NCBI GenBank assembly: GCA_900772445.1
Contig: CAAHEL010000060.1
Span: 1 to 28,550 of the forward strand
Reading direction: 5' to 3'
Length of the DNA: 28,550 bases
Source: Bacilli bacterium
Lineage (GTDB): Bacteria > Bacillota_I > Bacilli_A > RF39 > UBA660
Below the pieces are notes generated by a model. It did not search any database. It worked only from the letters and a program-made list of their open reading frames with translations, and was not told the origin of the DNA. Below are positions 2,849 to 20,177 of the stretch, piece after piece. Each line of letters starts with the position of its first letter. Positions within the stretch are counted from its first letter, which is position 1. A program made the translations under genes and the position numbers.

Positions 2849-4351
2849 ATGAAAAAAATAATGTTATGTATATTAGATGGAGTGGGAGTAACTGAAAATC
2901 ATGTAGGTAATGCTTTTTATAATGCTGATACTAAAAATATTGATAAGTTAATTAAAGAGTTTCCTCATACGTTACTTCATGCTTCGGGAGAGTATGTAGG
3001 GCTTCCAAAAGGTCAAATGGGTAATTCTGAAGTGGGACATATGACTATTGGGGGAGGTAAGGTTATATTTCAGTCTTTGGAATATATAAATAAGAAAATT
3101 GAAGATAATACATTTAGTGAAAATACTGAAATATTAAAAACTATTAATCACGTAAAAGAAAATAATTCTAAACTTCATTTAATGGGACTTTTATCTGATG
3201 GTGGGGTACATTCAAGTATTTATCATTTATTTAAATTATTAGAAATGTGTAAGGAAAATGATTTAAAGGAAGTATATATTCATATTATTACTGATGGAAG
3301 GGATACGCTTCCTACTAGTTCGGTAAAATATATTAAGATGCTTGAAGATAAGATTAATTCTTTAGGTATTGGTACTATTGCTAGTGTTGGGGGAAGATAT
3401 TATGCAATGGATAGGGATAATAGATATGAAAGAATTAAAAAGTATTATGATGTTATTGTAAAAGGAGATAATTATAAGGAAAAAGATGTGTATGATGTAA
3501 TTAATTCTAGTTATAATAATAATGTTACTGATGAATTTATTGTGCCATTTCTAGTTAATAAAAATGGTATGATAGATAGTAATGATGGAATAATAATTTA
3601 TAATTTTAGACCTGATAGATTAAGGGAAATAATTACTGTTTTAACAGATGATAATGGTACTTATTTTGATATTAAGAAATTAGATAATGTTAGTATTGTA
3701 TCAATGATGAAAGTATCAGAAAAGTTAACTAGTAGATATGCTTTTAGTTTAGAGAGAATTGATAATCCACTTGGTGTTTATTTAGATAGTTTAGGTTATA
3801 GTCAACTTAGAATTGCAGAAACAGAAAAATATGCTCACGTTACTTATTTCTTTGATGGTGGAAAGGAAAGAGAATTAAAGGGTTCAAAAAGGGTATTAAT
3901 TCCTTCCCCTAAAGTTGCAACTTATGATTTACAACCTGAAATGAGTGCTTATGAAATAAATAAATCTTTACTTGAAGAAGTTAATAATAAGAAATATGAT
4001 TTAATTGTTTTAAACTACGCTAATGGTGATATGGTAGGGCATACTGGTAATTATGATGCTGCAGTTAAGGCAGTTGAAACAGTAGATAAATGTTTATATG
4101 AATTATATGAAAAATTACATAATGAATATACTTTTTTAATAACTGCAGATCATGGTAATTGTGAAAAAATGTTAAATGAAGATGGTAGTATTAATACGGC
4201 ACATACTAATAATAGGGTATTTTTTATAGTAACTGATACTAGTGTTAAGTTAAAAGAAGGTACTTTATCTGATATTGCTCCGACAATTCTTGATTTAATG
4301 AATATAGAAAAAAATAAAGAGATGACTGGTAGTAGTTTAATTAAAAGATAG
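2849..4351 (+). CDS. gpmI: 2,3-bisphosphoglycerate-independent phosphoglycerate mutase
   Basis: LCILDGVG, MGNSEVGH (catalytic Ser), ITDGRD and TADHGN motifs over about 500 aa. Start moved to the ATG at 2849 (MKKIML), which follows GAAAGG. Confidence 0.93.
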   Translation: MKKIMLCILDGVGVTENHVGNAFYNADTKNIDKLIKEFPHTLLHASGEYVGLPKGQMGNSEVGHMTIGGGKVIFQSLEYINKKIEDNTFSENTEILKTINHVKENNSKLHLMGLLSDGGVHSSIYHLFKLLEMCKENDLKEVYIHIITDGRDTLPTSSVKYIKMLEDKINSLGIGTIASVGGRYYAMDRDNRYERIKKYYDVIVKGDNYKEKDVYDVINSSYNNNVTDEFIVPFLVNKNGMIDSNDGIIIYNFRPDRLREIITVLTDDNGTYFDIKKLDNVSIVSMMKVSEKLTSRYAFSLERIDNPLGVYLDSLGYSQLRIAETEKYAHVTYFFDGGKERELKGSKRVLIPSPKVATYDLQPEMSAYEINKSLLEEVNNKKYDLIVLNYANGDMVGHTGNYDAAVKAVETVDKCLYELYEKLHNEYTFLITADHGNCEKMLNEDGSINTAHTNNRVFFIVTDTSVKLKEGTLSDIAPTILDLMNIEKNKEMTGSSLIKR

Positions 4352-4358
4352 GTGAACT

Positions 4359-5618
4359 ATGAATAAAAAGATTAGAATTGTTATAATAATTCTTTTGGTA
4401 ATGGTATTAATTTTTTTAGTGGGTTCTTTATTATATAAAGATAATTTAGAACAAAAGGAAGAAAATAAAATTAGAAATACTATTACTGAAATTAAAAAAC
4501 ACTATAATAATAAAGTTATAACTGATAAGGAAACTAAGTTATATATATTAAATAATAATAATTATGAAGAAGTAGGTATGGTAAGTGATAATGTAGTTTT
4601 ATCTTTAAAAGATATTAATATTAATACTGAAACTAAATATTTTATTACGGATACTTTTTCTGAAGAATATTATATTTATTATGAAGATGTTATACCAAGT
4701 AATGATACTGAAGAGGTTGATTATAGATATAGAAATTATATTCCTTTTGATGAGAATATTGTAACTGGGGATATAACGGAATTTTATAGTGATGGTAATT
4801 TGATATATAGATTTAATAAGTCTTTTGATTTACCAGTAATTATAAAGGAAGATAATAGTTATTTTGTGGAATTTAACAATAGGTTATTAGAAGTAAAAAA
4901 AGATAATGTAGTAAATACTTATAGTAATAATAATAGTGAAATAGAAAAAGCGAAAAGTATTAGAGTAATTGCATATCACGCTTTTTATGATAAATATGAT
5001 GAAAATGAGAAATGGTGTAGGACTGAAATATGTCATCCAACAACTCAAGTTGAAGAACAAAGTAAATATTTAAAAGAAAATAATTATTTTACATTAAATA
5101 CTAAAGAGTTATCTTGGTTTATTGATGGAAAAATTAATGTTCCTAAAAAATCAATAATGATTACTATTGATGATGGACTTCTTGCAGAACGTGGTTTGGA
5201 AGTTTTTGATAGGTATGAACTTAATGCGACTTTATTTTTAATTACTTCATTATATAAACCAGAATCTTATATAAAAAGCAAGTATATAGAATATCATTCA
5301 CACGGAAATGATTTACACAAAGTTGGTGTTTGTCCTGGAGGCCAAGGTGGAGGAATTAAATGTTTAGATAAAAATGTACTTATTGATGACTTGAAAACTA
5401 GTAGTGAAATACTAGGAGGTAGTACAGTATTTTGTTATCCATTTTATGAATTTAATAACTATTCAATTAGTGTTTTAAAGGAAGCTGGATATACTATGGC
5501 ATTTGCTGGTTTAGTAGGAAATGGTAGGGTAACTACTGGTACAAATAAGTATATAATTCCTAGATATACTATTACTAGTGATGTATCTTTAGAGGAATTT
5601 ATTAATATAGTTAAATGA
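4359..5618 (+). CDS. Membrane-anchored polysaccharide deacetylase family protein (NodB homology domain at the C-terminus)
   Basis: N-terminal TM helix. The C-terminal part carries ITIDDG (TFDDG-type motif) and HSHGNDLH (HxxxH-type motif). Confidence 0.7.
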   Translation: MNKKIRIVIIILLVMVLIFLVGSLLYKDNLEQKEENKIRNTITEIKKHYNNKVITDKETKLYILNNNNYEEVGMVSDNVVLSLKDININTETKYFITDTFSEEYYIYYEDVIPSNDTEEVDYRYRNYIPFDENIVTGDITEFYSDGNLIYRFNKSFDLPVIIKEDNSYFVEFNNRLLEVKKDNVVNTYSNNNSEIEKAKSIRVIAYHAFYDKYDENEKWCRTEICHPTTQVEEQSKYLKENNYFTLNTKELSWFIDGKINVPKKSIMITIDDGLLAERGLEVFDRYELNATLFLITSLYKPESYIKSKYIEYHSHGNDLHKVGVCPGGQGGGIKCLDKNVLIDDLKTSSEILGGSTVFCYPFYEFNNYSISVLKEAGYTMAFAGLVGNGRVTTGTNKYIIPRYTITSDVSLEEFINIVK

Positions 5619-5641
5619 GGTAGTTTTTACTATCTTTTTTT
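5618..5641 (+). terminator. Intrinsic terminator after the deacetylase gene
   Basis: GGTAGT (5619-5624) pairs with ACTATC (5629-5634) with one G-U pair and a 4-nt loop, followed by a T-run (5635-5641). Confidence 0.5.
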
Positions 5642-5675
5642 CTTAATATTAATGTGTCTAATGATACTTAAAAAC

Positions 5676-5704
5676 TTGACTGAATAGTGTTTTTCTTATA
5701 TAAT
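5676..5704 (+). promoter_or_regulatory. Sigma-A-type promoter of the wall-polysaccharide operon
   Basis: TTGACT (5676-5681), 17-nt spacer, TATAAT (5699-5704). AGGAAG lies before the ATG at 5726. Confidence 0.65.
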
Positions 5705-5725
5705 TTTATTAGGAAGTGATGATAT

Positions 5726-6511
5726 ATGATAAAAAATATTATACAAGTAATGAAAAGGTATAGATTTCTATTAGAGCAATTAGTTCTTAGAGATTTTAAA
5801 GTAAAATATAAAAGAAGTTTTTTAGGGGTAGTTTGGAGTTTATTATATCCATTATTAATGATGGGAGTTATGGCGTTGATATTCTCTAATGTATTTAGAT
5901 TTAGTGTACCTGGAGTTAATTATTTGGTATATTTAATGACTGGGTTAGTTATGTTTAATTATTTTAGTGAGGCTTCAAATCTATCTATGGGTTCAGTAGT
6001 AGCAAACTTTGGTTTAATTAATAAGATATATATTCCTAAATATATTTTTCCATTATCAAAATGTTTATTTGTTGGTATTAATTTTTTACTTACTTTGATA
6101 CCTTTATATTTAATAATTTTTATAACAGGACAAGGTGTTAATATTTATCATTTATTATTACCATTTGCTTTTATTTGTTTATTTATTTTTACTATAGGTA
6201 TGGGATTTATTTTATCTACAATTACTGTATTTATGAGAGATATGTTTTATATATATGGAATTATTATAACAGTATGGACTTATTTTACTCCGATTATGTA
6301 TGATATTTCAATGATTGGTCCAAAATTACAATTTTTATTTAAACTAAATCCATTATATCAATATATAGATTTTGCTAGAACTATTATTTTATATGGTAAT
6401 TGTCCTAGTTTAACTAGTTTTATTGCTTGTTTAGGAAGTTCGTTATTATTCTTATTAATTGGTTTAGCTGCTTTTAGGAAAAATCAAGATAAATTTATTT
6501 ATTATGCATAG
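5726..6511 (+). CDS. tagG: ABC-2 type polysaccharide/teichoic acid export permease
   Basis: About 260-aa six-TM ABC-2 permease with the typical N-terminus LVLRDFKVKYKRSFLGVVWSLL, directly followed by the cognate ATPase. Confidence 0.85.
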   Translation: MIKNIIQVMKRYRFLLEQLVLRDFKVKYKRSFLGVVWSLLYPLLMMGVMALIFSNVFRFSVPGVNYLVYLMTGLVMFNYFSEASNLSMGSVVANFGLINKIYIPKYIFPLSKCLFVGINFLLTLIPLYLIIFITGQGVNIYHLLLPFAFICLFIFTIGMGFILSTITVFMRDMFYIYGIIITVWTYFTPIMYDISMIGPKLQFLFKLNPLYQYIDFARTIILYGNCPSLTSFIACLGSSLLFLLIGLAAFRKNQDKFIYYA

Positions 6512-7304: not shown

Positions 7305-8327
7305 ATGAAATTATTAACTGTAATAGTTCCTGTATATAATACAGAAAAATATATTAAAAGATGTTTAGATTCACTAGATAATGAAGAAGTAAATGATTTA
7401 TTAGAAGTCTTAATAGTTAGTGATGGAAGTAAAGATAATGCTATAAATATTGCTAAGGAATATGAAAAGAGATTACCAGATACATTTAAAATAATTGAAA
7501 AAGAAAATGGCGGACATGGTTCAACAATTAATAAAGGATTAGAACTTGCTACTGGTAAATATTTTAGAGTATTAGATAGTGATGACTGGGTAGATAATAA
7601 TGATTTTGTTACTTTTGTTAAGAAATTAAAGGAATTAGATGTAGATTTAGTAGTAACAGATTATAGAAAAGAATTTGTTTATGAAGGAAAAAGTGAAAAA
7701 TTAGTTTATAAGGATTTGGAACCTAATAAGAAATATGATTTTGATACTTTTGATTTAAAACTATTAAATGGTGAATACTTTGTTATGGCAACTTCAACAT
7801 ATAAAACTGAAGTTCTTAGAAAGAGTAATTTAAAATTAATGGAAAAAACATTCTATGTAGATATGCAATATAATGTTGTACCAATACCTATGGTTAATGA
7901 TTTTATTTATTTAGATTTAGATATTTATAGATACTTTATTGGTAGAGTAGAACAAAGTGTAAATACATCATCATTTGTAAAAAATCATAAAAATCATGAT
8001 AAAGTAGTTAAATATTTAATTGAATATTATACTAATTTAAAAAATATTAGTGATGTAAAAAGAGAATATATAAAAATAATTATTAAATATATATTATTTA
8101 CTCATTATTCAATATATTGTATTTATTTTAAACATAAAAAAGAAGGATATAAACTAGTAAAAGAATTTGATAAATATTTATATGATACAAATAAGGAATT
8201 ATATGAAGTTAGTGATGTTTCTTTTATTAAGGTATATAGAAAATTGAAGTTTACTCCGACTTTATTAGTAATAAACAAAATGAAAAATACTTTAGTTAAA
8301 TTTGGAAAGAGAATGATGTCTAGATGA
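7305..8327 (+). CDS. Family 2 glycosyltransferase
   Basis: LTVIVPVYNTEKYIKRCLDSL, VSDGSKDN and the DxD-type LDSDDW motif. Confidence 0.85.
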   Translation: MKLLTVIVPVYNTEKYIKRCLDSLDNEEVNDLLEVLIVSDGSKDNAINIAKEYEKRLPDTFKIIEKENGGHGSTINKGLELATGKYFRVLDSDDWVDNNDFVTFVKKLKELDVDLVVTDYRKEFVYEGKSEKLVYKDLEPNKKYDFDTFDLKLLNGEYFVMATSTYKTEVLRKSNLKLMEKTFYVDMQYNVVPIPMVNDFIYLDLDIYRYFIGRVEQSVNTSSFVKNHKNHDKVVKYLIEYYTNLKNISDVKREYIKIIIKYILFTHYSIYCIYFKHKKEGYKLVKEFDKYLYDTNKELYEVSDVSFIKVYRKLKFTPTLLVINKMKNTLVKFGKRMMSR

Positions 8328-9547
8328 AAAAAATATTAGTTATTACTTGGTTTTATCCACCAGTTAATTCTTCGGAAGGATTAGTTACATATAAGCTTTT
8401 AAATAATTCTAAATACGAATATGATGTTTTTACTCAAAAGAATTCTGCTTCTTGGAGTTACGGAAATAAAGAAACATTAGAAAATAAAGATAATGTTAAT
8501 TCTATATTTGCTAAATCTAATAATTTAAAAGATTGGAAAAAGGAAGCAATTGAATACTTTAAAAATAATAAAGATAAATATGATATAGTTATGACTAGGT
8601 CTATGCCTCCAGAATCACACGAAGTAGGATTAAAAATAAAGAAAATTAAACCTAGTATTAAATGGATAGCATCTTTTGGAGATCCAATTGCTAATAATCC
8701 TTATGTTAATTTGAGTAAAAAAATGGATAATACAAGATTACTTATTAGAATTAAAAGATTACCTAAGAATATTGCAAGAAATCTAGTTAGAAAATGTATT
8801 ACAGAAAATCCAATTCAAGATAAAACTATTAAGAATTCTGATATGATTATTTTTAATTCAGAAGAACAAAAGAAATATATGTTAGGAAATAAATATAAAG
8901 ATAAGAATAGTATTGTTTTAGCACATTCTTATGATGAAAAGTTATATCCTAATAAAGTAAAAAAATATGAAGATAAAATACATATTACTTATATAGGTCA
9001 TTTAGATAGAATAAGAACACCAAGAATATTTTTAGAAGCAATAAAAGAATTAAAAAATGAAGATGAAGAATTATTCAAGAAACTTGAGGTTGATTTTTAT
9101 GGTAATTTATGTAGTGATGATAAATTATATATATTTGATAACTATTTGTATGATATAGTAAAATATAAGAAACAAGTATCATACTTAGAAAGTTTAAAAA
9201 TAATGAAAGAAACTAATTTCTTATTACATATAGATGCTAATTTAAGTTTAGTTAATAATGAAAATATCTTTTTTGCAGCAAAGCTTGCTGATTATATTGG
9301 TAGTGGTACTCCGATTATTAGTATTACTATGTTAGATGGGGCAAGTGCTAATATATTAAGAAATATAAATGCTTTAGTTTTAACTTATAGTAAATCAGAT
9401 ATTAAGAATTATTTAAGAAAAATAGTTTATAATAATTATAAATTCGAATTAAATAAAGAAACATCTTTGGAATATAGTTCTAAAGAAGTAGCAAAGAAAT
9501 TTGATAATATGGTTTCTTCAGAATTAGGAGTAAAAAATGAAAACTAA
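8324..9547 (+). CDS. GT-B fold (GT4/GT1-like) glycosyltransferase, specificity unknown
   Basis: The KILVITWFYPP N-terminus and YIGHLDRIRTP...EAIKEL / KLADYIGSGTPII patterns are typical of GT-B enzymes. Its ATGA start overlaps the upstream stop. Confidence 0.5.
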   Translation: MKKILVITWFYPPVNSSEGLVTYKLLNNSKYEYDVFTQKNSASWSYGNKETLENKDNVNSIFAKSNNLKDWKKEAIEYFKNNKDKYDIVMTRSMPPESHEVGLKIKKIKPSIKWIASFGDPIANNPYVNLSKKMDNTRLLIRIKRLPKNIARNLVRKCITENPIQDKTIKNSDMIIFNSEEQKKYMLGNKYKDKNSIVLAHSYDEKLYPNKVKKYEDKIHITYIGHLDRIRTPRIFLEAIKELKNEDEELFKKLEVDFYGNLCSDDKLYIFDNYLYDIVKYKKQVSYLESLKIMKETNFLLHIDANLSLVNNENIFFAAKLADYIGSGTPIISITMLDGASANILRNINALVLTYSKSDIKNYLRKIVYNNYKFELNKETSLEYSSKEVAKKFDNMVSSELGVKNEN

Positions 9548-12661: not shown

Positions 12662-13663
12662 ATGAAAATATTAGTAACAGGTGGAACTGGATTTATTGGT
12701 AGTCATACGGTAGTAGAATTATTAAATAGTGGCTATGAAGTAATAGTAATTGATAATTTATCTAATTCTAAAATAGATGTTGTAGATAAAATAAAGAAAA
12801 TAACTAATAAGAATTTTGACTTTTATGAAGAAGATGTTTGTAATAAAGAAGCATTAGAAAAGATATTTAAAGAAAATAAAATAGATGCAGTAATACATTT
12901 TGCAGGATATAAAGCAGTTGGAGAATCTGTAGAAAAACCATTAATGTATTATAGAAATAATCTAGATAGTACATTTAGTTTATGTGAAGTAATGAGTAAA
13001 TATGGTTGTAAGAATTTTGTCTTTTCTTCATCTGCGACAGTATATGGTACACCAAAAAGTTTACCAATTAAAGAAGATTTTCCTATTGGAGACACTACTA
13101 ATCCATATGGAACTAGTAAAGTAATGAATGAAAGAATATTAACAGATATTTATAATTCAGATAATTCTTGGAATATTGCTTTACTTAGATATTTTAATCC
13201 AATTGGAGCACATAAAAGTGGTTTAATTGGAGAAAATCCTAACGATATTCCAAATAATTTAATGCCTTACATTGTTAAAGTAGCAACTGGAGAATTACCA
13301 ATTTTAAATATATTTGGTGATGATTATGATACAATTGATGGAACTGGAGTAAGAGATTATATTCATGTTGTTGATTTAGCAAAAGGACATATTAAAGCAA
13401 TTGAATGGGTACTTAAAGGTAATGGAATAGATGCTTTTAATCTAGGAACTGGTAATGGATATAGTGTACTTGAACTGGTTAATGCTTTTAAAAAATACAA
13501 TAATGTAGATGTTCCATATAAAATAGTAGGAAGAAGAAGTGGAGATATTGCTTCTTGTTATGCTGATGTTAGTTATGCTAAAAAAGTTTTAGGCTGGGAA
13601 AGTGTTTATGGTATTAAAGATATGGTAATAGATGCTTATAATTTTGTAAAAAATAACAAGTAG
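12662..13663 (+). CDS. galE: UDP-glucose 4-epimerase
   Basis: GGTGFIGSH Rossmann motif, the SSSATVYG and YGTSK (YxxxK) catalytic motifs, and RDYIHVVDLA. Confidence 0.92.
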   Translation: MKILVTGGTGFIGSHTVVELLNSGYEVIVIDNLSNSKIDVVDKIKKITNKNFDFYEEDVCNKEALEKIFKENKIDAVIHFAGYKAVGESVEKPLMYYRNNLDSTFSLCEVMSKYGCKNFVFSSSATVYGTPKSLPIKEDFPIGDTTNPYGTSKVMNERILTDIYNSDNSWNIALLRYFNPIGAHKSGLIGENPNDIPNNLMPYIVKVATGELPILNIFGDDYDTIDGTGVRDYIHVVDLAKGHIKAIEWVLKGNGIDAFNLGTGNGYSVLELVNAFKKYNNVDVPYKIVGRRSGDIASCYADVSYAKKVLGWESVYGIKDMVIDAYNFVKNNK

Positions 13664-13681
13664 TATTGAAAAATAAATAAA

Positions 13682-13712
13682 ACTATTATATAATTTATAT
13701 AGTAGTTTTTTT
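13682..13712 (+). terminator. Intrinsic terminator after galE
   Basis: A 10-bp stem (13682-13691 pairs with 13697-13706, one G-U) with a 5-nt loop, followed by T6. Confidence 0.55.
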
Positions 13713-13723
13713 GAGGTGAAATT

Positions 13724-14761
13724 ATGGGGATTAAGGAAATTTTATTAATGGTTGGAGTAACTTTCTTATTTACGGTATTTTTTATTCCAGTAGTAAAGAA
13801 AATTGCTAATCATATTGGAGCATTAGATATTCCAAATGAAAGAAAAGTACATAAGGTACCAATTCCAAGATTAGGTGGTTTAGGAATATATGCTGGTTTC
13901 TTATTAGGTTATATGTTATTTTGTAATGAATCGTTGCAAATGAATTCAATACTTATTGGTAGTTTTATTATAATTATAACTGGTATAATTGATGATATTA
14001 AACCAATACCTGCGAAATATAAATTTTTAGGTCAAGTTGCTGGGGCAGCAGTAATACCATTATATGGTGGTATTATTCTAAAAGATATTAGTGCTTTTGG
14101 ATTAAATATTGATTTTGGTTTTTTAAGTATTCCAGTAACTATTCTATTTATAGTATCAATAATTAATTGTATTAATTTAATTGATGGATTAGATGGACTT
14201 GCTGGAGGGCTTGCTTCGATATATTTTTTAACAATTGGAATAATAGCAATGATGCTTAATAATTCAAATGGATTAGATATAGTTTTAACATTTATAATGT
14301 TAGGTTCTACACTAGGTTTCTTATGGCATAATTTTAATCCAGCATCAATATTTATGGGAGACTCTGGTAGTATGTTTTTAGGATATATTATATCAGTAAT
14401 TGCTTTATTAGGTTTTAAAAATGTAACATTAACATCATTTATTGTTCCAATGTTATTGCTTGCTATTCCGATATTAGATACATTCTTTGCTATATTAAGA
14501 AGAATTATTAATCATAAACCTATAACTATGCCAGATAAAAATCATTTACATCATCAATTACTTAGAATGAAGTTTTCGCAAAGAAAAACAGTATTAATTA
14601 TATATATGGTTGATATATTATTTGCAATAGCATCAATTATATATGTTCTAGGAGATAGTCTTCAAGGAATAATTGTTTATGTAATATTACTTATTATTAC
14701 TTTAATATTTATATTTAAAACCAATATTATTTGGGATAGAACTAAGAAGAATAAGAATTAA
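13724..14761 (+). CDS. tagO: Undecaprenyl-phosphate GlcNAc-1-phosphate transferase (WecA/TagO, MraY-like GT4 family)
   Basis: Polytopic membrane protein with the NLIDGLDGLA and FMGDSGS motifs. Its context includes tagA and mnaA. Confidence 0.88.
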   Translation: MGIKEILLMVGVTFLFTVFFIPVVKKIANHIGALDIPNERKVHKVPIPRLGGLGIYAGFLLGYMLFCNESLQMNSILIGSFIIIITGIIDDIKPIPAKYKFLGQVAGAAVIPLYGGIILKDISAFGLNIDFGFLSIPVTILFIVSIINCINLIDGLDGLAGGLASIYFLTIGIIAMMLNNSNGLDIVLTFIMLGSTLGFLWHNFNPASIFMGDSGSMFLGYIISVIALLGFKNVTLTSFIVPMLLLAIPILDTFFAILRRIINHKPITMPDKNHLHHQLLRMKFSQRKTVLIIYMVDILFAIASIIYVLGDSLQGIIVYVILLIITLIFIFKTNIIWDRTKKNKN

Positions 14762-14801: not shown

Positions 14802-14834
14802 ATAATTATATTAGAAATAATAATGAGGTGCGAA

Positions 14835-16694
14835 ATGAATAATAGTGTTAGATTAACCCTTCCCACTATGAAGGATATATTTGGAACAGATGATTACAAT
14901 ACAGGTCAATTAAGAGTAATAGCAAAATATGGGGTAGCAAGCAATGTAACAGATTTAGCTTTGTTAAGTGGTGCAGATCCATATGTGTATAAAGGAAATA
15001 TTTATGAAGGAGCATATTTTACTAAGTCACAAGAAAGTGTTGGTATGGGTTATCTCTTAGTTTGTGAAGGTGGTTGGTGTGGTATTAATGGAAATAGTTA
15101 TACTAGAGATAAATGTATTAGACCAGTTATTGAAATGCCTTCAAATTATATAGAATTATGTAAAAATAGTAGATTTAATGATAAAGATGTTAGGGAAGTA
15201 GATTTTGGTGAATATCCACAAAATGCTCCTCCAAAAGATATACAAGAAATGCTTGAAGAAAAATATAGAAAAGGTGAATTTAAATTAACTGGAGCTAGTT
15301 ATACTTTTAATAGATTTGATAATACTGTGGTACATAATTCTCCTTTTGAACCTGTTAAATATAATGAGTATGAATATAATGGTAAAAAATATATTAGAAC
15401 AACTGTGGAGTCAAATTACATTGTTTTAAATAATGGTGAATGTCTTCGTGATGCAAAGGGAAGTTATGTTTGGATTGAAGTATCACCAGTTACTTGGTTG
15501 ATTGATACAGAAGAACATAAGTTAATTTCTAAATATTGTTTACTTTCAGGAATTAGATTTGATAAAGAAGATTTATATGATGGAGATTTTTCTAAAACAG
15601 AAATGTATGATTATTTAGAAAAATATATGTCAAAAGAAATGATGCAAGGTACTTTAAAAACATATGTTAGTAGTAAACCTAAAACTGTTAATTCATATGG
15701 ATTTAATTTTGAAAAAGTAAGTGAAGAAGATATAATAAGAGGTTCTGTTGAAAGTGGAATAGCGGTATTTTTACATGGTCCATCTTCTGAAGGCAAAAGT
15801 GCTAGAGTAAAACAAATTGATCCGGATTGTGAAATAATTTATCTTCGCAATGCTACACCAGATAGTTTAAATGGAAAAAGTGTATATAACACCGAAACAG
15901 GGGAAATGATTGATGTTCCTCCGACTTGGTTAAAAAAATTAAAAGAAAAGTGTGAACGAGAACCAGATAAACTACATATTTTGTTCTTTGATGAAATAAC
16001 TAATGCTCTTCCAAGTATCCAAGGTATAGCATTTAATATAGTTTTAGATAGAGAAGTAAATGGTATTTGGAAATTACCAGATAATGCTAGAATTGTTGCG
16101 GCAGGTAATGATATGAAAGATTCACTTGCAGCCAACGAACTTGCTGAACCTTTATTTAATAGGTTTGCTCATGTTTATATAAAAACAACTACTGAAAGTT
16201 GGTTAAAATGGGCAAGTGAAAATAATATACATCCTGCGATTTATGCTTATATTGCTTATACTAGAGGTGAAGCGTTAAGAAGTAAATATGATGGTGAAAA
16301 GCCAAATGCTGATCCAAGAAAATGGGAAATGGCATCAAAAATGCTATATAAAACAAATAATCCGGAAATGTTAAGAGCATTAATAGGTGAAGACTTGACG
16401 GAAGAATTTATTCATTTTTGTAAATGTTCTGTAATAACTTTAGATGATGTAATAAATGATAGTTATAGTGAAAGTGATTTAACTATGTTAAATACTGCAG
16501 AAAGATATTCAACAATAATGGGATTATCTGGAGTAGATGAAGAAAACTTTGGAAAAGTTAGGGATTTTGTTTGTAAATTAGGACCAGAATTTGTATCAAC
16601 GTTTGATAGTTTATGGTGTCGTAATGATGAACACAGGTTAGAAATAGTGGCAGAATATAGACTTACTGAAAATAAAGGAGTTGGAAGACGATAA
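14835..16694 (+). CDS. AAA+ ATPase (AAA_5 / MoxR-like core) with an uncharacterised N-terminal region of about 300 aa
   Basis: Walker A GPSSEGKS (15777-15800), Walker B ILFFDE (DE at 15990-15995), sensor-1 VAAGN (N at 16107-16109), arginine in LFNRF (16161-16163) and a helical lid with PRKWEMAS. Start moved from 14823 to the ATG at 14835, which follows GAGGTG. Confidence 0.8.
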   Translation: MNNSVRLTLPTMKDIFGTDDYNTGQLRVIAKYGVASNVTDLALLSGADPYVYKGNIYEGAYFTKSQESVGMGYLLVCEGGWCGINGNSYTRDKCIRPVIEMPSNYIELCKNSRFNDKDVREVDFGEYPQNAPPKDIQEMLEEKYRKGEFKLTGASYTFNRFDNTVVHNSPFEPVKYNEYEYNGKKYIRTTVESNYIVLNNGECLRDAKGSYVWIEVSPVTWLIDTEEHKLISKYCLLSGIRFDKEDLYDGDFSKTEMYDYLEKYMSKEMMQGTLKTYVSSKPKTVNSYGFNFEKVSEEDIIRGSVESGIAVFLHGPSSEGKSARVKQIDPDCEIIYLRNATPDSLNGKSVYNTETGEMIDVPPTWLKKLKEKCEREPDKLHILFFDEITNALPSIQGIAFNIVLDREVNGIWKLPDNARIVAAGNDMKDSLAANELAEPLFNRFAHVYIKTTTESWLKWASENNIHPAIYAYIAYTRGEALRSKYDGEKPNADPRKWEMASKMLYKTNNPEMLRALIGEDLTEEFIHFCKCSVITLDDVINDSYSESDLTMLNTAERYSTIMGLSGVDEENFGKVRDFVCKLGPEFVSTFDSLWCRNDEHRLEIVAEYRLTENKGVGRR

Positions 16695-17083
16695 TGGATA
16701 GAAAAGAGTTATTACTTACTTATATTGAAAATAATGTTGTGCCAATACTTGTAGATTTTATATCAGGTAGTGATTTAGGTAATGCTATAATTTTACCAGC
16801 AAGTATTTCTAAAAGTGAATTAAACGGACATTATGAAGGAAAAGATTTTTTACCTCCGAAATGGTATCAAGAACTTACTTTTGAAAAAAATAGTAAAATA
16901 TTAGTTATAGATAAAATAGATTCTGTATCTAAAGAAGAACAAACAAAGTTTATAGAATTATTAGAATATAGAAAAATATCTACTTTTATACTTCCTAAAA
17001 ATTGTGTAATTATTGTTACAGCAAATGAGATTAATAAAGATAAAATTAATGAAGAATTATTCTCTTTAGTAGCAAGAATATGA
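16694..17083 (+). CDS. Degenerate, catalytically dead AAA+ core paralogue (pseudo-ATPase), 129 aa
   Basis: It aligns by eye, block by block, with the core of the upstream ATPase, but every catalytic motif is ruined. GPSSEGKS becomes SGSDLGNA, FFDE becomes VIDK and NRF becomes SLV, while VAAGN/VTAN is retained. Its start overlaps the upstream stop (TAATG). Confidence 0.7.
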   Translation: MDRKELLLTYIENNVVPILVDFISGSDLGNAIILPASISKSELNGHYEGKDFLPPKWYQELTFEKNSKILVIDKIDSVSKEEQTKFIELLEYRKISTFILPKNCVIIVTANEINKDKINEELFSLVARI

Positions 17084-17090
17084 GGTAATT

Positions 17091-18248
17091 ATGTATGATA
17101 TTGATTCGTTAAAAAGAAAAATGTTAATTAAATATCCATTCTTTGGTAGTACAATTACTAATGTAGAATATCAAGAACTATTAGATATAGATACTGCTGC
17201 AACTGATGGAAATAAAATATATTATAATCCTGAATTTTTAGGTGGATTAACTATTGAAGAACAAATATTTATACTAGCTCATGAAGTTTGTCATATTGCT
17301 TTTAATCATATATCAAGAAGAAAAGATAAAGATAAAAATTTATGGAATATTGCTACTGATGCTGTAATTAATCAGTTATTAAAAAAAGATGGATTAAAGA
17401 TGTTAGATGGTTTGATAGATATTCCAGAAGCAATTGATTATGATGCTGAAACATATTATGAAAAATTATTGCAAGAACAAAAAGAAAATCCTGATTTTGA
17501 TAGAAAAGCAGGTAATGATTCTCATGAAATGTGGGAAAATACTGACATAAAAGAAATTGGTAAAACAGATACTTTGGAAAAAGAAGATGATATTAGTGAA
17601 AAAGATGCTTTCAAAAAAAATAGGGAATTAAAAAAGAAGCAATTAGAAGATTTAAAAAGATCTTTAATAAAGGATACTGTTACTAGTAATGAATTTAATA
17701 TGAGTAATGTAGGTGGTGCTAGTTCTTTAATTGATTGGAGATATATTTTAAAAGAAACTATTAATTATGATGTTGACTGGTCTTACAAAAATGCTACTAT
17801 AGAAAATGGAGTAATAACTGCTAATTTGGAAGATAAAGCATTACCAGTAACGGAGATACTTTTAGATACTAGTGGTTCAATAAATGAGGATTTATTAAGG
17901 ACATTTTTAAGAGAATGTAAAAATATTTTAAAGCATTCTAAAGTTTTAGTAGGGTGTTTTGATACAATTTTTTATGGCTTTAAAGAATTAAGAACAGAGC
18001 AAGATATAGATAATATGAGATTTGTTGGTGGTGGAGGAACCAATTTTGATGTTGCAGTAAATGCTTTTTCAAGAAGAAGTGAAAATAAAATTATTTTTAC
18101 AGATGGTGAAGCAAGAATGCCTATAACTCCTGTTAATGCTGTATGGATAGTTTTTGGTAACAGGAAAATTAATCCAAAGGGTGGAAAAGTAATCTATATT
18201 AATGAAGAATTATATAACAATATGAATGTGGTTAATAAAAAAAGATAA
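17091..18248 (+). CDS. Putative metallopeptidase (HExxH, DUF2201_N-like) fused to a vWA-like domain
   Basis: KYPFFG...AATDG...LAHEVCHIAFNH...WNIATDAVINQ (HEVCH at 17280-17294). The C-terminal part has the MIDAS-like LLDTSGS (17865-17879), GGGGTNF and IFTDGEA. A GAGGT RBS overlaps the upstream stop codon. Confidence 0.8.
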   Translation: MYDIDSLKRKMLIKYPFFGSTITNVEYQELLDIDTAATDGNKIYYNPEFLGGLTIEEQIFILAHEVCHIAFNHISRRKDKDKNLWNIATDAVINQLLKKDGLKMLDGLIDIPEAIDYDAETYYEKLLQEQKENPDFDRKAGNDSHEMWENTDIKEIGKTDTLEKEDDISEKDAFKKNRELKKKQLEDLKRSLIKDTVTSNEFNMSNVGGASSLIDWRYILKETINYDVDWSYKNATIENGVITANLEDKALPVTEILLDTSGSINEDLLRTFLRECKNILKHSKVLVGCFDTIFYGFKELRTEQDIDNMRFVGGGGTNFDVAVNAFSRRSENKIIFTDGEARMPITPVNAVWIVFGNRKINPKGGKVIYINEELYNNMNVVNKKR

Positions 18249-19649: not shown

Positions 19650-20177
19650 ATGAGAAAAAAATTGAATAATAAAGGTTTTACTTTAATTGAATTACTTGCT
19701 ACTATTGTTATACTTGGAATAGTATCTACGGTGGTGGTGGTATCTGTAACAGGGTATTTAAATAATAGTAAGAAAACGACTGAAAATGCATTTATTATGC
19801 AACTTGAAGATTCTATCGAAGGTTATGTTTCTTTATATGCTAGTAAAGACTTGAAGTTTTCTTTATATGATGAGAGTAATAAGTATCAAAAGTGTTATAA
19901 AGAAGGTAATAGTAATAAATGTTATGATGTTGTTATTTATAAGGGAATGGTATCTGGTACAAATAATATACCTACATTAAGTGTACTAAAAAGTAAAAAT
20001 ATTATTAATAATGAATTAGTTAATCCAATAAATAAAAAGAGTTGTGATATAGATAATACTTCTTTAGAAATATATAGGGATTCTGATTATGTTTATTGTT
20101 TTAAGGTAAATACTATTAATTGTATAGATAAAACTAATGTTATTGATACTTGTTCTAGTTTATATATAGAAAGATAG
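19650..20177 (+). CDS. Type IV pilin / pseudopilin-like protein (prepilin-type N-terminal cleavage/methylation domain)
   Basis: Canonical class III signal peptide MRKKLNNKG/FTLIELLATIVILGIV with Glu at +5. AGAGGA RBS. Confidence 0.85.
   Translation: MRKKLNNKGFTLIELLATIVILGIVSTVVVVSVTGYLNNSKKTTENAFIMQLEDSIEGYVSLYASKDLKFSLYDESNKYQKCYKEGNSNKCYDVVIYKGMVSGTNNIPTLSVLKSKNIINNELVNPINKKSCDIDNTSLEIYRDSDYVYCFKVNTINCIDKTNVIDTCSSLYIER

Follow-up and report, generated by a model that had tools for sequence, protein, structure and literature searches.

A catalytically degenerate AAA+ core encoded between a MoxR-like ATPase and a VWA-metallopeptidase in uncultured gut Bacilli

AAA+ machines repeatedly use inactive paralogous subunits for regulation or for breaking their symmetry, and examples include the clamp-loader delta and delta' subunits, ChlD, FtsHi, dynein AAA5/6 and LAP1/LULL1. 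The ChlD subunit, in which an AAA+ domain is combined with an integrin-I/VWA domain, links the ChlI motor to ChlH (PMC6604950, PMC3789969). LAP1 has an AAA+-like fold without nucleotide motifs and pairs with Torsin (PMC4358337). NorQ, an ATPase of the MoxR type, engages the VWA domain of NorD by its pore and its post-sensor-1 loop (PMC13036017). In ternary MoxR-vWA systems, inactive NTPases such as iSTAND or a dead N-terminal FtsH AAA+ domain serve as third components (PMC7159879). The locus described here lies in a stretch of 28,550 nucleotides from a Bacilli bacterium (GenBank assembly GCA_900772445.1, contig CAAHEL010000060.1), the whole of which is called the window below. Three genes form a tightly packed run on its + strand: gene 1 encodes an AAA+ ATPase, gene 2 a protein of 129 amino acids (aa), and gene 3 a VWA-like protein with a putative metallopeptidase domain. 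The evidence identifies gene 2 as a dead paralogue of the gene 1 AAA+ core, a reading given a probability of about 0.9; inactive AAA+ partner subunits are a known theme, of which it is an unusually small case.

The first-pass annotation of this DNA, made from the sequence alone, had described gene 2 as a copy of the core of the neighbouring ATPase, and this was borne out by profile-profile alignment (hhalign E values of 3e-7 to 7e-7) and by fold matches to AAA+ proteins only. Using alignments of 60 gene 2 and 82 gene 1 sequences drawn from 80 loci, hhalign placed residues 5-129 of gene 2 onto residues 303-451 of gene 1, from helix alpha0 through strand beta5, with a probability of 91.9% and an E value of 6.9e-7 over 124 columns. 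The 102-sequence gene 2 alignment, made of 50%-identity representatives, gave 93.1% and 3.3e-7; a narrow family alignment gave P = 6e-4. In the controls (20 column shuffles and one reversal), E values were at least 0.0057 and scores reached at most 26, against 52 for the real pair. A hidden Markov model (HMM) of the gene 2 family matched every gene 1 protein at single-comparison E values of 1e-8 to 8e-6 and did best on one gene 1 lineage (4.7e-11). The FELPKNC of the gene 2 consensus recurs in the gene 1 protein of a locus of that lineage (L087). Furthermore, the motifs LNG and PPxW are common to gene 2 and the cellular gene 1 proteins and are missing from the phage relatives, PPxW in particular from the phage ATPases of gene 1's own family.

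Single-sequence comparison gave a marginal result, BLASTP aligning residues 53-129 of gene 2 with 365-451 of gene 1 at an E value of 0.014. BLASTP and hhalign reproduced three of the four aligned blocks (the second to the fourth) on which the annotation had built its case. All Pfam matches of gene 2 were below threshold and all belonged to the AAA+ clan (AAA, 0.0022; AAA_5, 0.0073; Sigma54_activat, 0.018), and the same three models recurred in 16, 8 and 10 of 40 family members, respectively. The AAA_5 (PF07728) score was 16.8 bits, below the gathering score of 22. Sequence searches of the PDB with the profile of gene 2, with that of gene 1 and with the gene 1 core returned nothing significant, since both proteins are too divergent for detection by sequence only.

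AlphaFold2, run on gene 2 with the 102-sequence alignment, produced a five-stranded alpha/beta core with a predicted local distance difference test (pLDDT) score of 94.4 and a predicted template-modelling score of 0.88. This model supersedes an earlier run (pLDDT 61) on a shallow alignment in which the sequences were about 70% identical, and for which the Foldseek matches were weak, yet already all AAA+. In the final model, five parallel strands in the AAA+ order are flanked by helices, and both the helix-2 insert and the pre-sensor-1 hairpin, the marks of the MoxR/AAA_5 group, are present. The top 50 PDB and top 50 viral Foldseek matches were all AAA+ ATPases, with probabilities of 0.99-1.00 and template-modelling (TM) scores of 0.50-0.74 relative to the query. 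Among the PDB matches were NtrC1, NorQ (including the form bound to the NorD VWA domain), MuB, FlrC, LonP1, CbbQ, MCM, MoxR (2r44) and dynein, at E values of 1e-4 to 2e-3 and TM scores normalised to the query of 0.54-0.68. The viral matches, at TM scores of about 0.7, were phage ATPases of the AAA_5/MoxR-like kind, each about 350 aa long. The annotation had named profile and structural similarity as the place where its claim could be refuted; the similarity is significant, and the gene 2 model matches AAA+ cores only.

The catalytic parts of the core have been lost from gene 2, in one case otherwise than was first supposed. The first aligned block of the annotation stood as far as strand beta1 is concerned (PILVDF against AVFLHG), and its pairing of the P-loops did not: the proposed change of GKS to GNA is a misregistration. 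In both the hhalign alignment and the structure model, the NAIILPA segment of gene 2 lies on strand beta2, opposite CEIIYLR of gene 1, so that the P-loop and helix alpha1 are deleted. The gap comprises 9 columns in hhalign and about 15 in MAFFT, and the short loop now occupying the site is not conserved in sequence across the family. No GxxxxGK[ST] was found at the P-loop position in any of 150 gene 2 representatives. The change of the Walker B pair from DE to DK is seen in gene 2 as first read. Across the family this pair varies (DK, DN, DR, KD, QD, EN, NN and others), hence there is no catalytic constraint on it. The sensor-1 asparagine is indeed kept in this protein (N111), though not as a family feature, the position being variable. 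Where gene 1 has the finger residue R447, gene 2 has L125; the position, leucine or serine, varies across the family; no conserved arginine occurs at or near this position in the family, and the loss of the arginine noted at first thus holds. The absence of an N-terminal domain and of a lid was likewise confirmed, since the protein stops at strand beta5, residue 129, leaving no lid to carry a sensor 2.

Conservation in gene 2 maps instead to the helix-2 insert, helix alpha3, the pre-sensor-1 hairpin and the hydrophobic strands. Among 102 diverse members, W57 of PPxW is invariant and P55 is at least 90% conserved, as are Q83, K85 and F86 of alpha3; I72 and I106 are further conserved residues. 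The alpha3/pre-sensor-1 stretch, the best-conserved part of the family, aligns with PSIQGIAFNIVLDREVNGIWKLPDN of gene 1. With the catalytic motifs absent or unconstrained over more than 100 diverse members, the gene 2 protein is predicted to be incapable of canonical ATP binding or hydrolysis. The positions of these elements and of the other features of the locus are collected in Table 1.

Table 1. Features of the three-gene locus, with positions in the window and residue numbers in each protein
Feature	Positions	Strand	Residues or length	Basis or remark
Gene 1	14823-16694	+	623 aa	Open reading frame (ORF)
Gene 2	16694-17083	+	129 aa	ORF
Gene 3	17091-18248	+	385 aa	ORF
TAATG	16692-16696	+		Gene 1 TAA stop and gene 2 ATG start, one base common to both
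Gene 1 Walker A, GPSSEGKS	15777-15800	+	319-326	Motif table
Gene 1 Walker B, ILFFDE	15978-15995	+	386-391	Motif table
Gene 1 sensor-1 VAAGN to arginine-finger helix LFNRF	16095-16166	+	425-429 to 444-448	Motif table
Gene 2 variable loop, ISGSDLGN	16760-16783	+	23-30	Occupies site of lost P-loop and helix alpha1
Gene 2 ELNGH...PPKW	16817-16864	+	42-57	Helix-2-insert hairpin; gene 1 counterparts SLNGK (348-352) and PPTW (366-369)
Gene 2 ILVIDK	16898-16915	+	69-74	Former Walker B strand, catalytic Glu replaced
Gene 2 EEQTKFIELLEYRK-ISTFILPKN	16934-17002	+	81-103	Helix alpha3 and pre-sensor-1 hairpin
Gene 2 VIIVTAN (beta4) to LFSLVARI	17006-17080	+	LFSLVARI, 122-129	Former sensor-1 to beta5
Gene 2 model, first part			alpha0 3-13, beta1 18-20, beta2 31-35, helix-2-insert hairpin 46-53, alpha2 56-63	Structural elements
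Gene 2 model, second part			beta3 69-73, alpha3 80-92, pre-sensor-1 hairpin 94-99, beta4 105-109, alpha4 120-123, beta5 127-128	Structural elements
Gene 3 HExxH, HEVCH	17280-17294	+	64-68	Motif position
Gene 3 MIDAS DxSxS, DTSGS	17865-17879	+	259-263	Motif position

Gene 1, the ATPase of the locus with canonical catalytic motifs, consists of a variable N-terminal domain (residues 1-296), the AAA+ core (303-451) and a conserved C-terminal lid and extension (452-623). The core is a divergent AAA_5/MoxR-like AAA+ module. The label "MoxR-like" given to it at first holds only as a sub-threshold AAA_5 match (15.2 bits, E value 0.022, against a gathering score of 22 bits), which recurs in 21 of 23 members of the gene 1 family. 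Residues 303-613 match the phage family phrog_1297, labelled "ATPase", end to end at 1.1e-47. The catalytic motifs are almost uniformly retained among the tabulated homologues. The Walker A pattern GxSS[ED]GKS occurs in all of them but one species (rows L001-L003, GPSSENKF), and the Walker B DE pair in all but L014, where an Asp-to-Asn change gives NE (FLNE). The sensor-1 asparagine is invariant, and the NRF finger is kept except in rows L001 and L002 (LNKF). The mean p-distance is 0.48 in the N-terminal domain (14823-15710) and 0.19 in the core and C-terminus (15711-16691). A hypervariable N-terminal domain on a near-frozen motor suggests a diversifying sensor or ligand-binding head. Some genomes (loci L006, L008, L028 and L064) contain two to four or more tandem gene 1 paralogues arranged in gene 1-gene 1-gene 2-gene 3 cassettes. 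A few gene 1 homologues show weak matches to DUF6273 and Fib_succ_major.

Gene 3 starts 7 bases past the gene 2 stop and is preceded by a GAGG ribosome-binding site. Its N-terminus matches Pfam DUF2201_N (3.5e-31), a putative zincin metallopeptidase domain, and its C-terminus matches the VWA-like DUF2201 (2.5e-12). An operon partner with a VWA domain and a metal ion-dependent adhesion site (MIDAS), as found beside ATPases of the MoxR/AAA_5 group, is thus provided by gene 3, with DUF2201 and DTSGS, and it adjoins in most loci. In the PHROGs profile search, gene 3 (17091-18245) belonged to the phage family phrog_1314 (6.8e-66). That family is labelled "HNH endonuclease", which looks like annotation carry-over, as gene 3 is a DUF2201 metallopeptidase-VWA protein. 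The overlap of the gene 2 start with the ATPase stop codon, pointed out in the annotation, was confirmed, and such a TAATG arrangement would couple the translation of gene 2 to that of gene 1. A promoter and terminator scan of the operon gave the same counts as shuffled sequence and was therefore uninformative in this AT-rich DNA. Neither NCBIfam nor PADLOC holds a family for any of the three proteins; assignment of the module to a known defence system is therefore unsupported.

Gene 2 belongs to a sizeable family. A word-indexed search found 452 close relatives, and an exhaustive search covering 1.84 billion representatives yielded 234 clusters at 50% identity, nearly all of them stand-alone proteins of 115-140 aa. 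The pairwise ratio of nonsynonymous to synonymous substitution rates (dN/dS) had a median of 0.195 and a maximum of 0.51 over 398 pairs, corresponding to purifying selection. No model of the family was found in Pfam, NCBIfam or PADLOC, and no literature on it was found. No clean fusion of gene 2 with gene 3 occurred among the 150 best gene 2 representatives, where only one truncated chimera was seen. In P0369, a metagenomic protein of 233 aa, the C-terminal half of gene 2 runs into the middle part of gene 3. A programmed fusion of gene 1 with gene 2 was considered and rejected: fused forms are absent from the homologues found, and gene 1 variants of 890 aa retain a separate gene 2. Damaged copies were seen at two loci. 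The gene 2 of L055 (2031-2207) is cut down to 58 aa by an in-frame internal deletion, while the frameshifted copy of L030 (about 7900-8500) lies beside genes 1 and 3 that are likewise fragmented, which probably reflects assembly quality.

The annotation had proposed to check whether homologous loci also carry the small gene. When one genome was taken per species with gene 1, giving 76 loci, gene 2 stood immediately after a gene 1 copy in 64, with an overlap of 1 or 4 bases in nearly all of them, and gene 3 started 7-11 bases past gene 2 in almost all of the 64. These genomes are those of uncultured gut Bacilli ("Tenericutes"/RF39-like metagenome-assembled genomes). Four further gene 2 representatives, strongly divergent (25-35% identity) and taken as a separate sample, were also located between genes 1 and 3, in genomic neighbourhoods unrelated to one another. 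Eleven of the 76 loci (L063, L066-L069, L071, L073-L075, L078 and L079) are without gene 2, and in them gene 3 directly overlaps the end of gene 1; they are mostly labelled Clostridia or Bacillota, including Zhenpiania hominis and Lentihominibacter. The one remaining locus ends at gene 1. Absence from most homologous loci, the other ground on which the claim of the annotation would have failed, is thus not what the loci show. Gene 2 is genetically dedicated to the gene 1/gene 3 module and dispensable in sister lineages.

One abundant species (loci L001-L004) departs from this arrangement. Gene 1 (4082-6001) and gene 2 (6001-6393) stand there with no gene 3 at the locus, the Walker A motif of gene 1 is broken (GPSSENKF), and in some copies the finger arginine is replaced by lysine. 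In the place of gene 3, a small AAA_18/zeta-toxin-like gene follows. The ORFs of both genes are intact in this species, and gene 2 is well conserved. Outside the bacteria, the gene 1 core matches 718 phage records, from N4-like Schitoviridae and from jumbo phages including PA5oct. A tblastn search of phage genomes with gene 2 gave no match, and the gene 2 HMM found no gene 2 in two phage loci, those of Vibrio phage VBP47 and Pseudomonas phage PA5oct (L082 and L083).

Compared with the described systems, ChlD/BchD is the closest to gene 2 in logic. Like the AAA+ module of these subunits, gene 2 is an inactive module paralogous to its motor, belongs to the group with the helix-2 insert and the pre-sensor-1 hairpin, and is tied to a MIDAS VWA, in an arrangement that serves a bridging or allosteric role in ChlD/BchD (PMC6604950, PMC3789969). 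The gene order of motor, dead core and VWA protein (genes 1, 2 and 3) repeats the likeness. Whereas ChlD and BchD are fusions, gene 2 encodes an unfused polypeptide in all loci. The AAA+ module of ChlD is complete, whereas gene 2 has no lid, P-loop or helix alpha1, and the VWA partner here bears a zincin-like HExxH peptidase domain. At the sequence level, gene 2 is not a member of the chelatase family, and no chelatase subunit of the H/N type was seen in the loci examined.

The likeness of gene 2 to LAP1/LULL1 is one of architecture, these also being stand-alone, lid-less AAA+-like alpha/beta domains without nucleotide motifs (PMC4358337). However, LAP1 and LULL1 donate a strictly conserved arginine finger to the finger-less Torsin, while gene 2 has leucine at this position and gene 1, unlike Torsin, keeps an NRF finger of its own. 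Furthermore, they are eukaryotic luminal membrane proteins without a VWA partner. The pair of genes 1 and 3 resembles NorQ/NorD, CbbQ/CbbO and RavA/ViaA in combining an AAA_5/MoxR-like ATPase with a MIDAS-VWA protein, and two of the best structural matches of gene 2 are NorQ and CbbQ. An inactive third component is shared with the VMAP, iSTAND and FtsH ternary conflict systems (Kaur et al. 2020; PMC7159879), although here that component is the MoxR-like core itself in a minimal, lid-less copy rather than a STAND, FtsH or VMAP protein. None of the described ternary MoxR-vWA systems uses such a copy as its third part (PMC7159879). The present module differs from MoxR-VWA systems also in the large variable N-terminal domain of gene 1, in a VWA protein of the DUF2201 type with a metallopeptidase domain, and in that genes 1 and 2 both fall under the Pfam AAA_5 threshold. 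The phage phrog_1297/phrog_1314 pair is of the same families as genes 1 and 3, except that the phage ATPases, of about 350 aa, lack an N-terminal domain of the gene 1 type.

The most probable origin of gene 2 is a partial tandem duplication, in an ancestor of a clade of uncultured gut Bacilli, of an ATPase of the gene 1 type. Such a duplication is the most economical account given the synteny, the tandem gene 1 paralogues and the shared LNG and PPxW motifs; tandem duplications of gene 1 are common in Bacilli loci and hence offer a ready route to a truncated copy. The duplicate would then have shed its N-terminal domain, the P-loop together with helix alpha1, the catalytic glutamate, the arginine finger and the entire lid, and would have retained the five-stranded core, the helix-2 insert and the pre-sensor-1 hairpin.

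As to function, the likeliest role of gene 2 is that of a non-catalytic partner that couples the ATPase to the VWA-peptidase or regulates the action of the one on the other, a proposal whose chances are put somewhat short of even. Judging from synteny and precedent, and with indirect support from the stop/start overlap and from co-variation of divergence, its product may be a physical subunit together with that of gene 1 or gene 3. A duplicated subunit of a self-assembling complex as a rule still binds its parent, and every well-studied dead AAA+ module known to us acts inside or against an active AAA+ assembly; binding to gene 1 is most likely for these reasons. Gene 2 also stays with gene 1 in the species lacking gene 3 at the locus. 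In the mechanism proposed, gene 2 would be made by translational coupling with gene 1 and would bind gene 1 protomers via the retained AAA+-type contacts, forming a fixed, nucleotide-free partner inside the gene 1/gene 3 machine. There it would either break the symmetry of the ATPase assembly or bridge the assembly to the VWA-metallopeptidase, and would so tune the timing of peptidase remodelling or activation by the ATPase. The conserved pore-side elements are compatible with gene 2 gripping gene 3. In a distance-matrix partial correlation, gene 2 followed gene 3 at 0.59 and the gene 1 core at 0.41, a weak test as the gene 1 core barely varies.

Several points weigh against this picture of descent and function. 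The case for descent from gene 1 in particular is drawn from profile-profile scores, common motifs and location rather than from a phylogeny. In the PHROGs sequence-profile search with gene 2, a clamp-loader family (1e-5) came ahead of phrog_1297, the family of gene 1 (3.7e-4). The gene 2 of one species (L055) carries the large internal deletion mentioned above. The gene 1/gene 3 pair exists without gene 2 in the Clostridia clade and in phages, hence gene 2 should be a modulator or accessory and not a core part. The lid and helix alpha1, both missing, are ring-contact parts, and incorporation of gene 2 into a ring is therefore not assured. Finally, no finger arginine is conserved in gene 2, which leaves no ground for an activator role of the LAP1 type; with gene 1 having its own finger, such a role is unlikely.

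The best surviving alternative, itself unlikely, makes gene 2 a cap or brake that binds the face of one gene 1 protomer and ends or poisons ring or spiral assembly, keeping the ATPase and the peptidase off until a signal displaces it. With leucine or serine at the finger position and the P-loop gone, any AAA+-type interface that it formed with gene 1 would be devoid of catalytic activity, and coupled synthesis would deliver the inhibitor along with the enzyme. The dispensability of gene 2 in the sister clade is what is expected of regulators, and the variable N-terminal domain and tandem paralogues of gene 1 look like those of a regulated, sensor-type system. Yet co-translation of a pure inhibitor at equal dose would be odd unless its release were regulated, and the best-conserved surface of gene 2 consists of pore-side elements and not of the expected inter-protomer faces.

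It is slightly less likely again that gene 2 works outside the ATPase assembly, on the side of gene 3, as an AAA-like docking module supplied in trans to the VWA-metallopeptidase (in effect a split ChlD) or as a decoy whose retained pore-loop elements hold the VWA finger. The constant spacing of gene 2 from gene 3 wherever the latter is present, the lean of the partial correlation towards gene 3 and the joining of the two genes in P0369 would agree with this. So would the nature of the conserved parts of gene 2, which are the elements with which NorQ grips NorD (PMC13036017), and the position of the dead AAA+ module of ChlD on the VWA subunit (PMC6604950). These points are countered by the retention of gene 2 with gene 1 where the locus has no gene 3 and by the overlap of its start with the stop codon of gene 1, not with gene 3. 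In addition, clean gene 2-gene 3 fusions are absent from the 150 best representatives, and the correlation itself is uncertain with a gene 1 core that hardly varies.

Concerning origin, an independent descent of gene 2, by which this dead AAA+ core would derive from another AAA+ lineage (for example clamp-loader-like or phage) and have been recruited beside gene 1, is quite improbable. The PHROGs ranking, a generic AAA family as top Pfam match and the occurrence of RFC and Lon among the structural matches would fit it. However, the helix-2 insert and the pre-sensor-1 hairpin typify the NtrC/MoxR/MCM group, not clamp loaders, and among viral structures the best matches are phage ATPases of the AAA_5/MoxR-like kind. 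It is specifically with cellular gene 1 proteins that gene 2 has LNG, PPxW and FELPKNC in common, the two proteins align collinearly from alpha0 to beta5, and gene 2 always adjoins gene 1. That gene 2 is a non-functional leftover, a remnant of a tandem gene 1 copy in decay and still open by chance, as the common gene 1 copies and fragments and the two damaged loci might suggest, is scarcely credible in the face of the low dN/dS and the size of the family, which effectively refute a pseudogene remnant, and of the constant length of about 130 aa, the conserved motifs, the conserved stop/start coupling and the confident compact fold obtained from the family alignment.

The gene 2 family shows how small a dead AAA+ subunit can get under selection, namely 129 residues with the P-loop, helix alpha1 and the lid all gone, and it could be defined as a new domain family. 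The uncharacterised three-gene module occurs widely among uncultured gut Bacilli, and more than 700 phage genomes contain homologues; the ATPase/VWA-peptidase pairs of Clostridia and phages, without the dead core, offer a natural comparison. A bolder view, more doubtful than the partner role proposed above, is that the family represents an undescribed "core-only" class of AAA+ pseudo-subunits, of about 130 aa and devoid of P-loop, helix alpha1, lid and arginine finger. Such subunits would insert into or cap a MoxR-like ATPase assembly and so provide a fixed, nucleotide-free site at which the VWA-metallopeptidase docks and its activation is gated. Bacteria would then have, encoded in trans, a counterpart to the logic of ChlD-ChlI and LAP1-Torsin, and partial tandem duplication would have given rise to it within a system that is diversifying, has relatives in phages and is possibly related to conflict.

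Immediately upstream of the three genes, at 12662-14761 (+), two ORFs appear by eye to encode a UDP-glucose 4-epimerase and a glycosyltransferase of the WecA/MraY type, and additional + strand ORFs lie before them, from about position 2819 on. The neighbours of the three-gene module vary among genomes, hrcA-grpE-dnaK being found in L087, for example, so the adjacency to the epimerase and glycosyltransferase genes is probably incidental. Downstream, an ORF of 175 aa at 19650-20177 (+) has an N-terminus like that of type IV pilins or pseudopilins (KGFTLIELL followed by a hydrophobic helix) and sits just upstream of a membrane-protein ORF of 156 aa and a pseudouridine-synthase-like ORF.

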